Below, piece after piece: positions 2,351-64,000 of a stretch of DNA of 64,000 nt (its first letter is position 1; every line of letters begins with the position of its first letter). This stretch comes from an uncultured Bacteroidaceae bacterium. GTDB lineage: Bacteria; Bacteroidota; Bacteroidia; Bacteroidales; Bacteroidaceae. The stretch spans positions 3,452-67,451 of the forward strand of contig CAJOLW010000025.1 in assembly GCA_905235525.1 (NCBI GenBank), given 5' to 3'. The notes below the pieces were generated by a model. The model saw only the letters and a program-made list of their open reading frames with translations, ran no database searches and was not told the DNA's origin. The translations under genes were made by a program, and so were the position numbers.

Positions 2351-2392
2351 CTCTTAGAGGTGTTTAGATGTTAGTAATTTACAATTTCGCTG

Positions 2393-11047: not shown

Positions 11048-11152
11048 TTATATGTACAATTTGACCATGTACAATGTACCATCTATTTTCCATTCGGGAT
11101 GTACGTAAAAAACAGTTCAATCGCTAAATTGTCAAATAAATTGTAAATCACT
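11048..11152 (+). repeat. 105-nt intercistronic element (head ATGTACAATTTGACCAT, tail AAATTGTAAATCACTATG)
   Basis: Homologous along its length to 12464-12568 and shares head and tail with 62473-62593. Contains the mini-ORF 11052-11108. Confidence 0.7.
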
Positions 11153-12463
11153 ATGATGAAACAGATACTCAACAACCTTTGGAGCCAACGAACACAAAAT
11201 GTATGGCTCTTCATCGAACTGGTGGTGGTGTGCTTTGTAGCATGGACACAACTTGACCCGATTGCCGTGAGATTGTACTATAAGAGTTTGCCGAAAGGCT
11301 TTGACAGCGAACGGTTGGTGGTGGCAAACACCAGAACCACCGATATACAATGGATAGACGATGACTCATACAACACGAATAGAGCATTCGTTCAAAAGAT
11401 GATCAAACAAAAATTACAGACATTAGATGAGGTGGAACAAGTGAGCCTCCTTGGACAAATCCAAGGTTTACTGGCTCCTCGGAACATTTTCAATGGTTCA
11501 TCATGGGTCGATCAGGAAGGTGAACAATACATTTATGGAAATGACACCATCCTTGTCTATGAACTATGCTACATTAAGAACGAGCACTTTTTTGAAACTT
11601 ATGGCATTCAAGTAGCGGATGGAAGCCCTACAGCAAAAGAACTATCGAAGTTGGATGATGATGGTGTGGTCATCAGCCGTTCCATTGCCGAGCACTTCTT
11701 TGGGTCTGCCAAGGATGCCATCGGCAAAGAAATTTTTGAAGCTGACATCATGATGAGTCGCCGCATCCGAGGAGTGGTAGAGGATATTCATGTGTCAGAT
11801 TCCAACTTCGACACCTGGCAAATCTATCAATCCACCTCGGACATTAAAATGATTTTTATTAGTAACCACCTCACCATACGCCTGAAACCTGATGTGAACG
11901 TACAGCAATTTATTGAGAAGTACAACTGTCTTCAACAATTTGCTACAGACGGGCTTGCCATCGCCTTCTTCACACCTTACGAGGACATAGCCACGCCCAA
12001 GAATCAGTTTGCTACGCCTATACTCTCCTACGACTTCAATCTCTCTGTCGCCACCGCCATCTTCTTCCTCATCAACCTCTGCTTGGGTGTGATTGGCACG
12101 TTCTGGATGCAGACCAAGCGGCGAACGGAAGAGTCGGGCATCATGCGGGCATTCGGATCTACGAAGCGACGCATCATGGGAATGTTCTTGGCGGAGGGCT
12201 TCGTGCTCACCACCTTCAGCATGTTCATCACCTGCATCCTCTACCTCAACTATGTGAAGACAGGACTTGGTACCTTGTGCATCCCTCCTCATGAGCCATA
12301 TGCACAACCCGACCCCACATGGGTGGCAGACAAGCCCCTGCACTTCCTCATCATCTCCGGCATCGTCTATCTCATCATACTCATCACTGTCTCCATCGGC
12401 ATCACCATCCCTGCATGGAACATCGTCAGGACAAAGCCTGTGGAAGCACTGAGAGAAGAATAA
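11153..12463 (+). CDS. MacB/FtsX-type ABC transporter permease (paralogue)
   Basis: 436 aa with the same topology as the upstream permease and an FtsX domain MRAFGSTKRRIMGMFLAEGFVLTT. Confidence 0.85.
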   Translation: MMKQILNNLWSQRTQNVWLFIELVVVCFVAWTQLDPIAVRLYYKSLPKGFDSERLVVANTRTTDIQWIDDDSYNTNRAFVQKMIKQKLQTLDEVEQVSLLGQIQGLLAPRNIFNGSSWVDQEGEQYIYGNDTILVYELCYIKNEHFFETYGIQVADGSPTAKELSKLDDDGVVISRSIAEHFFGSAKDAIGKEIFEADIMMSRRIRGVVEDIHVSDSNFDTWQIYQSTSDIKMIFISNHLTIRLKPDVNVQQFIEKYNCLQQFATDGLAIAFFTPYEDIATPKNQFATPILSYDFNLSVATAIFFLINLCLGVIGTFWMQTKRRTEESGIMRAFGSTKRRIMGMFLAEGFVLTTFSMFITCILYLNYVKTGLGTLCIPPHEPYAQPDPTWVADKPLHFLIISGIVYLIILITVSIGITIPAWNIVRTKPVEALREE

Positions 12464-12568
12464 ATATAATGGACAATTTGTACCATGGACAATGGACAAT
12501 TTATGAATTGGATGATTTTCGTAAATGACTCAATCAAAAAAATTAAATAGTAAATTGTAAATATCATT
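12464..12568 (+). repeat. 105-nt intercistronic element (second copy)
   Basis: ATGGACAATTTGTACCATGGACAATGGACAAT ... TAAATAGTAAATTGTAAATATCATTATG. Contains the mini-ORF 12469-12528. Confidence 0.7.
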
Positions 12569-13246
12569 ATGGAAACAATCATTAAATTGACAAACATCAA
12601 CAAGGTGTATCGCACTGAGGAAATTGAGACTCAGGCATTGGAGAACGTGAACATCGAAGTGGAAAAGGGAGAGTTCCTCAGCGTGATGGGACCATCGGGC
12701 TGTGGCAAATCGACTTTGCTCAACATCATGGGACTGCTCGATGAACCCACCAGCGGCGAGATTGAACTGTGTGGCACAAAGATTGATTCCACACTGAGCG
12801 ACAACCGATTGGCAGAGTTCCGCAACAAGACGCTGGGCTTCGTGTTCCAGTCGTTCCACCTCATCAGTTCGCTCAACGTGCTCGACAACGTGCAGTTGCC
12901 ACTCCTCTATCGGGGTGTCGGCTACAGCGAACGCATGAAACGCGCCAAAGAAGTCATTGAGCGAGTGGGACTGTCCCACCGCATGAAACACACACCCGTG
13001 CAACTCTCAGGTGGTCAGTGCCAGCGTGTTGCCATTGCCCGTGCCATCATCGGCAACCCCGAAATCATCCTCGCCGACGAACCGACAGGTAACCTCGACT
13101 CGAAGATGGGTGCCGACATCCTCGGACTGCTCAAGCAACTGAACGAGGAGGATGGACGCACCATCGTGATGGTGACACACAACGAACAGCAGGCACAGCA
13201 AACGAGCAGAATCATCAAGTTCTTGGACGGAAGACAAATCATGTGA
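12569..13246 (+). CDS. ABC transporter ATP-binding protein (MacB/LolD-like)
   Basis: 225 aa with Walker A GPSGCGKSTLL, signature LSGGQCQRVAIARA and Walker B IILADEPTGNLD. Confidence 0.92.
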   Translation: METIIKLTNINKVYRTEEIETQALENVNIEVEKGEFLSVMGPSGCGKSTLLNIMGLLDEPTSGEIELCGTKIDSTLSDNRLAEFRNKTLGFVFQSFHLISSLNVLDNVQLPLLYRGVGYSERMKRAKEVIERVGLSHRMKHTPVQLSGGQCQRVAIARAIIGNPEIILADEPTGNLDSKMGADILGLLKQLNEEDGRTIVMVTHNEQQAQQTSRIIKFLDGRQIM

Positions 13247-14971: not shown

Positions 14972-15006
14972 AGCCCCCTCTAACTCCCCATAGGAGAGAG
15001 AGGAGT
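14972..15006. repeat. single arm of the G/C-hairpin element family
   Basis: AGCCCCCTCTAACTCCCCATAGGAGAGAGAGGAG resembles the left arms at 6741, 23443 and 48185. Confidence 0.55.
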
Positions 15007-15007
15007 G

Positions 15008-15086
15008 AAAAGTTAAAAGTAGAAGTTACCTACCATACGGGGTGTTGGTGCCCTGTTTGCAAAGGTAACTTCTACTTTTAACTTTT
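15008..15086. repeat. perfect 23-bp inverted repeat (long hairpin built of A/T heptads)
   Basis: AAAAGTTAAAAGTAGAAGTTACC (15008-15030) is the exact reverse complement of GGTAACTTCTACTTTTAACTTTT (15064-15086). Confidence 0.8.
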
Positions 15087-15243
15087 AGTTTTTAACTTTT
15101 CACTTTTTCATTACGTTGGCTCCGCCGAAGTTAAGATGCACCTCAACAATAGTTTTCATTAGAAAAACAAAGAAAAAGGTTCTATCCCAATACCTTGAAA
15201 AAATAATCTTAGACTTGTCTTTGGAAATAAAGGGAATCATTCG

Positions 15244-32042: not shown

Positions 32043-32118
32043 CCAGCCCACGCGCTGGGCGATTTTCTCCATGCGGCGAGCCAGCCCATGCGCTAGGCGA
32101 AGGTTTCCATGCGGCGAG
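32043..32118. repeat. 2 x 38-nt tandem direct repeat just after the groEL stop
   Basis: CCAGCCCACGCGCTGGGCGATTTTCTCCATGCGGCGAG / CCAGCCCATGCGCTAGGCGAAGGTTTCCATGCGGCGAG. The word CCATGCGGCGAG recurs at 62511. Confidence 0.8.
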
Positions 32119-55014: not shown

Positions 55015-55032
55015 AGTTTAGTGGTAGATGTC

Positions 55033-55145
55033 AAATGTTAGATATTAAATGTAAAATATAAAATGTCAAATAAACCTTTAAGAATGCTTACATTACATCG
55101 GGTCATACTTAACATCTGTCATTTTACATCTAACATCTAACATTT
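55033..55145. repeat. 25-bp imperfect inverted repeat built of AAATGTN/AGATGTT heptads
   Basis: AAATGTTAGATATTAAATGTAAAAT (55033-55057) matches the reverse complement of ATTTTACATCTAACATCTAACATTT (55121-55145) at 23/25. Confidence 0.7.
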
Positions 55146-61764: not shown

Positions 61765-62472
61765 ATGTGGTTAATCAACTCTTCAATCGGAAGGAAAGTG
61801 ATCATGTCGGTGACTGGCTTGGCACTGATTCTCTTCCTGACGTTCCATGGATGCATGAACGTAGTGGCACTTTTTAGTGCGGAGGCGTATAACCAGATTT
61901 GTGAATTGCTCGGCTCCAACTGGTATGCCATTGCGGCTACTTGCGCCTTGGCTGCCCTGATGGTCATTCACATCATCTACGCCTTCATCCTCACCTTCCA
62001 GAACCGGAAGGCTCGCGGTAACAACAAGTATGCTATTACCGACAAGCCCAAGGCTGTGGAATGGGCAAGCCAGAATATGCTGGTGCTGGGTCTTATTGTG
62101 TGTCTCGGACTCATCCTTCACTTAAAGGACTTTTGGGCAAACATGATGTGGGCTGAGATTATTGGTGCGGAAGGTCAGTTCGGCCCGACCGATGGTTTTG
62201 GCTGGATTAAGTACACGTTCTCCAACCCCATCTTCACGGCTCTCTACCTCGTTTGGATTGTGGCCATCTGGTTCCACCTCACTCACGGCTTCTGGTCAGC
62301 CCTGCAGACTCTCGGCTGGAGCGGCCACACTTGGTTCCTCCGCTGGAAGAACATCGGTTACATCTGGTCCACTGCCGTGATGGCCCTGTTTGCTCTCGTG
62401 GCTATCGCCTTCGCTGTATGCCCCGACTGCCTTGGCGGAATGGAAGGCAAGGTGGTTCCTTTCTGGATGTAA
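61765..62472 (+). CDS. sdhC: succinate dehydrogenase/fumarate reductase cytochrome b subunit
   Basis: 235 aa with five TM helices and MWLINSSIGRKVIMSVTGLALILFLTFHGCMN. Confidence 0.9.
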   Translation: MWLINSSIGRKVIMSVTGLALILFLTFHGCMNVVALFSAEAYNQICELLGSNWYAIAATCALAALMVIHIIYAFILTFQNRKARGNNKYAITDKPKAVEWASQNMLVLGLIVCLGLILHLKDFWANMMWAEIIGAEGQFGPTDGFGWIKYTFSNPIFTALYLVWIVAIWFHLTHGFWSALQTLGWSGHTWFLRWKNIGYIWSTAVMALFALVAIAFAVCPDCLGGMEGKVVPFWM

Positions 62473-62593
62473 TCTCATGTACCATTTGACCATTTACTAT
62501 TTACTATTTGCCATGCGGCGAGTGGGTCAGTTGTAAAATGGCTAAATTGGGAAAAAATTGTAAATTGTAAATCGCTAAATTGTAAATAACATT
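62473..62593 (+). repeat. 121-nt intercistronic element (third family member)
   Basis: The head is ATGTACCATTTGACCATTTAC and the tail is CGCTAAATTGTAAATAACATTATG. Contains the mini-ORF 62477-62536. Confidence 0.65.

Positions 62594-64000
<1,407 letters not shown>

Follow-up and report, generated by a model that had tools for sequence, protein, structure and literature searches.

The short tandemly repeated repetitive (STRR) sequences of cyanobacteria are heptamers. Direct repeats of the heptamer TAACTGA have been described in marine Beggiatoaceae, some Cyanobacteria, and five Bacteroidetes (MacGregor 2015, PMC4679880), and heptamers of the sequences GGGAATC and GGGGA(C/T)T in Xanthomonas and Nostoc, respectively, with 70 to 75 convergent pairs of inverted arrays in each Xanthomonas genome (Rehm et al. 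2015, PMC4692102). Tandem heptamers (GACAGAT, in strain-variable number) are also found in the intervening sequence (IVS) of the Coxiella 23S rRNA gene, which has a 28-bp terminal inverted-repeat stem, carries the S23p open reading frame (ORF), and is cut by RNase III at the first repeat (PMC4990558). Here, we compare these systems with the 121-nt gap (62473-62593) between sdhC and sdhA in a 64,000-nt stretch of DNA, hereafter the window (C25:3452-67451), from the 2.77-Mb, 99.8%-complete assembly (47% G+C) of an uncultured Bacteroidaceae bacterium. This spacer is probably a selfish, IVS-like cassette, ORF-less and partly decayed, the 3' arm of which now acts as the Shine-Dalgarno (SD)-less leader of sdhA.

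The sdhC-sdhA spacer consists of two inverted heptamer arms around a core

The locus is made up of the following parts, with the basis of each assignment in brackets.

61765-62472, + strand: sdhC (TIGR02046, sdhC b558 family, 203 bits)
62470-62476, + strand: sdhC stop codon TAA (62470-62472) and TCTC, 4 nt of residual native spacer (sequence)
62477-62512, + strand: 5' arm of five 7- to 8-nt units, ATGTACC ATTTGACC ATTTACT ATTTACT ATTTGCC (sequence)
62477-62536, + strand: mini-ORF of 19 aa, encoding MYHLTIYYLLFAMRRVGQL
62510-62522, + strand: core GCCATGCGG(CGAG), also written GCCATGCGGCGAG, with the consensus GCCATNCGG (motif census)
62523-62554, + strand: variable centre and degenerate inner 3'-arm units TGGGTCAG TTGTAAAA TGGCTAAA TTGGGAAA (sequence)
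62555-62587, + strand: 3' arm, AAATTGT AAATTGT AAATCGCT AAATTGT AAAT, the 5' leader of sdhA (sequence, array census)
62588-62596, + strand: native linker AACATT (62588-62593) and sdhA ATG (62594-62596) (ortholog comparison)
from 62594, + strand: sdhA (flavoprotein, matching PRK07573)

The two arms are mirror images unit by unit, down to the 8-nt unit, which is the second in both. No stop codon occurs in any frame of the 5' arm, whose first letters from 62477 are ATGTACCATTTGACCATTTAC. In the 3' arm, the 7-nt period moves the frame by one per unit, which puts a TAA in each of the three frames. A stop-free arm followed by a TAA-rich one explains the mini-ORF, which opens at the ATG of the initial ATGTAC unit and continues until the opposite arm supplies its first TAA, and we judge it to be a by-product of arm composition. 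At its 3' end, the spacer reads CGCTAAATTGTAAATAACATT-ATG. The 3' arm stops 6 nt short of the sdhA start codon, and AACATT-ATG is present in empty orthologous spacers too. Within the centre, ATGGCTAAA is able to pair with TTTGCCAT, and the terminal inverted arms of tandem units (62477-62512 and 62555-62587) pair weakly in this copy (z = -0.85). When the whole window was searched with Rfam covariance models, no match was found at the gathering score and none at E ≤ 1.

A first-pass annotation of this stretch, made from the letters alone, had already placed the beginning of the element at 62477, 4 nt past the sdhC stop, and had reported the mini-ORF and the end of the spacer; all of these were confirmed, as was the presence of every string that it quoted. 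One coordinate had to be corrected, since the string CGCTAAATTGTCAAATAAATTGTAAATCACTATG from the ATP-binding cassette (ABC) locus, given as 11126-11155, in fact spans 11122-11155.

The element is dispersed and biased toward gaps between co-directional genes

Similarity to two spacers of an ABC operon, which the earlier annotation had pointed out, was borne out when the spacer was compared to the genome using blastn, where E values went down to 3e-17 at other loci. The two ABC copies are as follows.

11048-11152, + strand: family copy between the ABC permease genes, with the core TTTTCCATTCGGGATG (blastn E 3e-8 to the sdhC-sdhA copy)
12465-12569, + strand: more degenerate copy in the permease-ATPase gap, with GGACAAT/GTACAAT units (blastn E 5e-3)

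In the window, AAATTGTAAAT at ≤1 mismatch has 13 matches against 1.9 expected, a number reached in 0 of 100 shuffles, and the 12-mer CCATGCGGCGAG, located at 62511-62522 and again at 32069 and 32107 after groEL, has 4 matches at ≤1 mismatch against 0.13 expected. Homologues of the left end of the spacer (CTCATGTACCATTT) are found at C35:155677 and other loci. Full-length homologues are present at about 10 unrelated loci in the genome, and about 25 further loci have half or solo arrays. Local tandem duplication does not account for the family, in agreement with the earlier annotation.

The unit of the array in the spacer can be written AAAT-N-GT. With a loose AAATNGT regular expression, 57 arrays were found in the genome, 30 of them with the ATG of an ORF of ≥60 aa within 40 nt, and the offset between array and ATG was most often 6 nt. 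A strict heptad-array expression gave 43 arrays, compared to 0 in five block-shuffles, and of these 26 abut a start codon in sense and 7 in antisense. Nineteen of the strict arrays form the 3' arm of an ATTTAC...AAATTGT pair, and the swapped order was seen in 0 of 19. Among the 24 solo arrays, 16 face a start, 4 point the opposite way, and 4 face neither. Approximately 11 of the 14 palindromic copies bridge the stop of one gene and the start of the next co-directional gene, beginning 1 to 5 nt past the stop and ending 4 to 11 nt before the ATG, and the remaining copies lie at convergent gene ends or in antisense. The genes downstream of arrays are housekeeping genes, such as def (peptide deformylase), alaS, metK, and atpE (ATP synthase c), and further ones are trpB, purB (adenylosuccinate lyase), an rnf subunit, and oxaloacetate decarboxylase beta.

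These counts support the view of a dispersed element with a strong preference for co-directional gaps and with its AAATTGT arm in the mRNA sense, and the similarity between copies exceeds chance. The earlier statement that the element "always" lies between cistrons and abuts the ATG is too absolute; a start is abutted by about 11 of the 14 palindromic copies and by 16 of the 24 solo arrays, with others convergent or antisense. The constant orientation that was claimed is automatic for the palindromic copies, which read ATTTAC-arm to AAATTGT-arm on both strands. Their core, which is asymmetric, can point either way with respect to the gene downstream.

In some solo arrays, the first letters are those of the upstream stop codon, for example gaaTAAATTGTAAAT at atpB-atpE, where the gap (C20:74203-74258) is made up of six AAATNGT units throughout, the atpB stop codon coming first. 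In monocistronic cases (for example, C23:695, C47:3518, C22:42561, and window 2377-2387 on the minus strand), the AAATNGT array takes up the 5' untranslated region (UTR), and TAnnTTTG-like Bacteroidota -7 boxes (TACCTTTG, TACATTTG, and TATCTTTG) are found directly upstream of these 5'-UTR arrays. AAATTGT was also considered as a promoter element and rejected, as it does not fit the Bacteroidota -7 box TAnnTTTG and the monocistronic arrays are downstream of such boxes (judged by eye, as marked here and below wherever this applies).

A core motif is shared by cassettes with different arm words

Seven is the main period of tandem repeats in this genome. Tandem Repeats Finder reported 378 heptamer arrays of ≥2.9 copies, 79 of them within crude ORFs, and 288 when a score of ≥34 was also required. 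The words are diverse (AAAAGTG, 66; AAACTCT, 25; AAATTGT, 24; AATTAGG, 23; and others), and inverted pairing was seen for at least 80 arrays, at a median gap of 50 nt. The inverted pairs are found in all intergenic contexts, close to stop codons.

The centres of the cassettes are alike across different arm words. In the AAAGTGA/TTTTCAC subfamily the centre is ATCTAAGTTACC-nGCCATnCGG-...-CATTrGCAAAAGTAACTTAGAT, and GCCATNCGG adjoins AATTAGG, AAGTTAA, AATTGAA, and AAATTGT arms alike. This consensus has 122 sites in the genome, 31 of which are ≤30 nt from a heptad array (1.8 expected, 17-fold), compared to 0 to 1 sites for three control motifs of the same composition. The enrichment identifies the 12-mer CCATGCGGCGAG as a conserved core motif of the family; the first-pass annotation had correctly seen that the spacer shares it with the repeat after groEL, and it is no chance word. 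The element turned out to be one word-subfamily of a much larger heptamer-armed class, some members of which have a PF05635 gene. When short cassettes of all words were compared, 49 of the 72 had a homologue at another locus over ≥80% of their length at ≤93% identity, which points to common descent rather than recent copying.

The repeat after groEL has the following structure.

32043-32118, + strand: two GC-rich hairpin repeats of 38 nt, in tandem after groEL, with CCATGCGGCGAG at the end of each (sequence)

Each unit consists of the hairpin CCAGCCCAyGCGCTrGGCGA followed by TTTCnCCATGCGGCGAG. The genome has eight copies of this hairpin type, three of them central in heptamer cassettes with other arm words. 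Two further palindromic cassettes were noted in the window, one at 15004-15107 with AGTTAAA/TAACTTT arms and the core TACCATACGGGG, and one at 55028-55143 with ATGTAAA/TAACATC arms.

Some cassettes carry a PF05635 gene

Two of the three PF05635 genes in the genome sit between inverted heptad arms that span the distance from a host stop to the next host ATG.

C21:49494-49975: PF05635/TIGR02436 "four helix bundle" gene cassette; its arms are the first of the two pairs listed in order for this and the next cassette, GGACAAC/GTTGTCT and AAAAACT/AGTTTTT
C22:64701-65161: PF05635/TIGR02436 "four helix bundle" gene cassette, with the arms listed second, AAAAACT/AGTTTTT

Across 31 genomes of the genus, PF05635 has 0 to 11 copies per genome and is present in 22 of them. 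At least 16 of 31 sampled loci were flagged automatically as having inverted period-7/8 arrays on their flanks, and about 27 of 30 when judged by eye. At the sampled loci, the PF05635 gene always points the same way as the host genes, and its 3' arm adjoins the next ATG. Two of these loci have the same word and polarity as the sdhC-sdhA copy, and both encode proteins matching TIGR02436: L153, in which ATTTACC x4 precedes the gene and AAATGGT/AAATTGT x4-TTTTTTT-ATG follows it, and L152, with ATGTACA before the gene and GTACATT/GGTAAAT arms after it. L153 (genome G152) is a pheT-yebC site, and in the present genome the pheT-yebC gap (C10:171595-171713) has a two-unit AAATTGT array and a small AACGAAT/ATTCGTT palindrome. 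The sdhC-sdhA copy itself has no PF05635/S23p ORF.

PF05635 is homologous to Avd, the accessory protein of diversity-generating retroelements (PMC10053308), which makes a role in handling nucleic acid plausible for the PF05635 protein by analogy. The sole reverse transcriptase of the genome, an RVT_1 gene (C50:6130-6753, L163; 425 aa, 84 bits), is upstream of a putative methyltransferase-like ORF and next to no PF05635 gene. The third PF05635-like gene (C10:27000-27196) is weak, with 35 bits in a 225-aa frame, and upstream of it are direct 10-nt repeats, CCTAGGAAGA / TCTAGGGAAT x7, rather than heptamers. We also considered whether the short core is a remnant of the 5' end of the PF05635 ORF; this was dropped, the shared 8-mers (CGAGTGGG in C21, and CGGGATG in L152 versus the first ABC copy) being statistically unestablished.

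The content of the gap turns over between species

Among species of the same genus, the orthologous sdhC-sdhA gaps differ widely in what they contain, being empty in four species and occupied in others by five other repeat types.

G142, G154, G123, and G049: empty, 23-25 nt (TAA-AACATTAAAACTTGAAAAACATT-ATG)
G016 (121 nt) and G155 (106 nt): same AAATTGT cassette
G101, G164, L003, and L004: AAAGTGA cassettes, 180-191 nt
G169: AAAAACT
G158 and L001: AATTGAA
G077: GC-rich palindrome
L012: solo AAATNGT array with the same 3' end and no 5' arm

At this site, the spacer of Segatella copri is a plain 32 nt. No strain-level relative was found in the genome collections or by a metagenome scan, the best SdhC identity being 93%. 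The orthologous arms differ between species in units and length. Identity to the present copy is 0.77 and 0.71 for the two AAATTGT cassettes at the orthologous site, compared to 0.78 and 0.68 for third codon positions in the genes on either side. Since the two sets of values are about equal, the cassette appears to drift at an approximately neutral rate. In a quick tree of the flanks, the branch support of which was not inspected, the cassette types are interleaved. A comparison of filled and empty orthologous sdhC-sdhA sites revealed no target-site duplication.

Of 151 genomes of the family, 24 have AAATNGT arrays, with up to 127 per genome, and single genera include both genomes with arrays and genomes without them; a reversed-pattern control was near zero in nearly all family genomes, with G101 as the exception. 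The atpB-atpE gap behaves between species (L086-L101) like the sdhC-sdhA gap. In sister species, it contains ACAATTA x4, 10-nt ACTAGAAGAA repeats, GC-rich palindromes, or a plain 27 nt.

Folding and initiation context of the spacer RNA

The sdhC-sdhA copy and both ABC copies fold no better than their shuffles (z -0.5 to -0.9), while other family copies reach z -3 to -6.5. Folding of the family copies favours neither strand. In the predicted minimum free energy fold of the spacer, the 3' arm and the start codon are unpaired. Around start codons, the genome shows the Bacteroidota pattern, namely an A peak at -11 to -15 without an SD signal. Array leaders are weakly structured (-4.2 versus -6.0 kcal/mol, a non-significant difference, p = 0.10), and they do not differ from GC-matched leaders. 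An intrinsic terminator was considered for the spacer and rejected, given that the arms are A/T-rich, that there is no T-run, and that the element is within an operon, 6 nt from the next ATG.

A decayed cassette and its alternatives

The spacer belongs to a family with a common architecture and a bias in position, its site changes content between species, and the class to which it belongs is linked to PF05635-carrying cassettes. We favour, with rather more confidence than doubt, the reading that it is a selfish and mobile IVS-like cassette that has lost ground to decay. According to this reading, a cassette of inverted tandem arrays (ATTTAC-type at the 5' side and AAATTGT-type at the 3' side) around a short GCCATNCGG core would have inserted into an ancestral sdhC-sdhA spacer of about 23 nt. 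Its word-subfamily is one of many in a large heptamer-armed class found in rumen Prevotella-like genomes, the full versions of which carry the gene for a PF05635/TIGR02436 "four-helix-bundle / 23S rRNA intervening-sequence protein". After insertion, it would have been inherited in at least three species, drifting approximately neutrally. Its tolerance by the host could be due to the last 6 nt before the ATG having been left intact, to the 3' arm offering an A/U-rich, weakly structured, SD-less leader of the type used by Bacteroidota ribosomes, and to one arm halting stray translation in all frames. The leader role of the 3' arm would then be a passive exaptation, and the arm stem may, by analogy with the rRNA IVS, be processed by RNase III. 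The association with start codons probably has two causes, namely that a compact genome can tolerate insertions only in its narrow stop-to-start gaps and that the AAATTGT arm is acceptable as a leader without an SD sequence; the 16:4 orientation of the solo arrays suggests some selection, or a preference for arm-like target sites.

Several observations weigh against this reading. No transposase, target-site duplication, or other mechanism of mobility was found; in particular, a search for the Y1/RAYT transposase (PF01797) gave 0 matches in the 99.8%-complete genome, with matches in 6 of 14 control genomes. None of the 72 short cassettes has a copy more than 93% identical, and thus there is no sign of recent movement. 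The three AAATTGT-bearing species are not monophyletic in the flank tree, the support of which was not inspected. The core motif is found at only 5 of 30 PF05635 loci upstream and 3 of 30 downstream, a partial link. The 16:4 solo orientation could reflect selection for leader function rather than passive tolerance, and the likeness of the arm word to the ancestral spacer AAAAATTGAA may, judging from the letters, indicate that the arrays arose by local slippage. Finally, the gene calls used here were crude (longest ATG ORFs).

As an alternative, the AAATNGT heptads could be a dedicated translational or post-transcriptional control element, with phased mRNA sites for an S1-, Csp-, or CsrA-like factor that sets downstream initiation. 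The 16:4 orientation of the solo arrays and the preferred array end, most often 6 nt before the ATG, would fit such a role, as would the whole 5' UTRs made of arrays downstream of TAnnTTTG-like -7 boxes, the placement ahead of housekeeping genes, and the retention of the cassette in three species; a similar argument has been made for TAACTGA (MacGregor 2015, PMC4679880). We nevertheless consider this unlikely, as sister species have a 23-25-nt spacer or quite different words at the same site, the drift is near neutral, and the distribution is patchy within genera. In addition, the A-rich phase of the arrays does not match the genome-wide A peak, leader structure is the same as in GC-matched controls, and many family members lie at convergent 3' ends. 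Purely local slippage of an A/T-rich heptamer in each spacer, without mobility or common descent, would account for heptamers being the dominant period (the 288 arrays mentioned above), for the resemblance of the ancestral AAAAATTGAA to AAATTGT here and to AATTGAA in L001, and for the solo array of L012 with the same 3' end and no 5' arm, and polymerase-linked heptamer slippage has been proposed (Mrazek 2007, as cited in PMC4679880). It is improbable for this spacer, though, because slippage yields direct rather than inverted arrays and leaves unexplained the non-repetitive termini (CTCATGTACCATTT) and core (ATTTGCCATGCGGCG) shared by unrelated loci, the fixed polarity of the arms, and the gene-carrying versions. 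With the controls indicating that the core motif is not a generic intergenic feature, slippage is largely refuted for the palindromic copies.

The palindromic layout also raises the question of a selected RNA hairpin in the sdhCAB transcript, be it an RNase III site, an attenuator, or a coupling gate that hides the sdhA start until sdhC has been translated. As the 5' arm begins 4 nt past the sdhC stop, a terminating ribosome would open the base of the stem, other copies fold far beyond their shuffles, and cleavage of the IVS stem by RNase III provides a precedent (PMC4990558). We regard a hairpin of this kind as quite improbable, since shuffles fold as well as the sdhC-sdhA and ABC copies do, neither the 3' arm nor the start codon is paired in the predicted fold, a G+C-rich stem with a T-run is absent, as is a sense-strand folding bias, and the neutral drift bears no sign of maintained pairing. 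Least credible of all is that the stop-proximal mini-ORF (MYHLTIYYLLFAMRRVGQL) encodes a real leader peptide. Its ATG is 4 nt past the upstream stop in the sdhC-sdhA copy and in both ABC copies, but an ORF of this kind is present in only 7 of the 12 full-length copies, its length varies between 8 and 35 aa, the peptides resemble each other only to the extent that the DNA repeats do, no reading frame can be kept through a 7-nt repeat, and the ORF ends wherever the TAA-rich 3' arm begins.

Comparison with known systems

Start-proximal heptamer repeats, inverted heptamer pairs, and S23p-bearing rRNA IVSs are three published, unexplained oddities, which at the sdhC-sdhA locus and its orthologues come together in a single cassette design; in a gut and rumen lineage, this design has colonised the same 23-nt intercistronic gap repeatedly. 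If the PF05635 link holds, it would give a very common "hypothetical" gene family a testable role and provide studies of Bacteroidota initiation with a natural set of interchangeable SD-less leaders. For annotation, the warning is that such spacers are by default neither regulators nor small ORFs. One may go further and imagine heptamer-armed cassettes as a general mobile class, an "intervening sequence for operons", in which an Avd-like PF05635 protein would drive or guide insertion both at the tips of rRNA helices and at stop-to-start junctions, the arms would serve as portable modules that renew themselves, terminate translation from upstream in every frame, and let it start again downstream without an SD sequence, and the ORF-less copies would be non-autonomous derivatives. 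This is a speculation that we put forward tentatively and think rather doubtful; if true, it would cover the TAACTGA, STRR, and GGGAATC repeats, classical IVSs, and the abundant TIGR02436 genes.

Like REP (repetitive extragenic palindromic) sequences, REPINs (pairs of REPs that make a hairpin), and MITEs (inverted-repeat transposable elements of miniature size), the cassettes are short, non-autonomous, hairpin-forming, and intergenic and occur in tens to hundreds of copies. REP/REPIN elements would be expected to have a cognate REP-associated tyrosine transposase (RAYT), which this genome lacks, and the arms here are tandem arrays rather than a fixed palindrome. MITEs have fixed terminal inverted repeats and a target-site duplication, compared to the variable tandem arms and no visible duplication here; they also have an autonomous partner, and the sole candidate for a "full" version here carries PF05635, which is not a known transposase.

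The GGGAATC repeats of Xanthomonas are closer, being intergenic heptamer arrays in inverted pairs near the end of the upstream ORF. However, the Xanthomonas and Nostoc repeats are G-rich, quadruplex-forming, and without association with start codons, and no shared core or cargo gene has been described for them (PMC4692102). TAACTGA and AAATNGT share several features: both are tandem heptamers in the mRNA sense, a few nt upstream of start codons and usually without an SD sequence, both have stop codons in the unit and a patchy phylogenetic distribution, and in both, copies in reverse orientation are tolerated inside ORFs. The unit of TAACTGA is a different one, and AAATNGT shares its genome with many other words. 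Inverted pairing with a conserved core and the link to PF05635 are typical here, and neither is reported for TAACTGA (PMC4679880).

The S23p-type 23S IVSs of Coxiella burnetii and Leptospira (Warrier et al. 2016, PMC4990558) lie in helix 25 or 45 of the 23S rRNA, whereas the spacer element is found between protein-coding cistrons. They carry an ORF, which the sdhC-sdhA copy lacks, and the arms of the cassette class are long tandem arrays of many different words. Excision by RNase III is known for the IVS and is suggested for the cassettes by analogy. As the assembly contains no 23S rRNA gene, there was no rRNA copy in which a classical IVS could be compared. In other respects the likeness is close: both have a terminal inverted-repeat stem, both have tandem heptamers in the stem region (in the IVS with a strain-variable number of units), the PF05635/TIGR02436 four-helix-bundle gene is the shared cargo of the IVS and the full cassette versions, and both are regarded as selfish and near-neutral.

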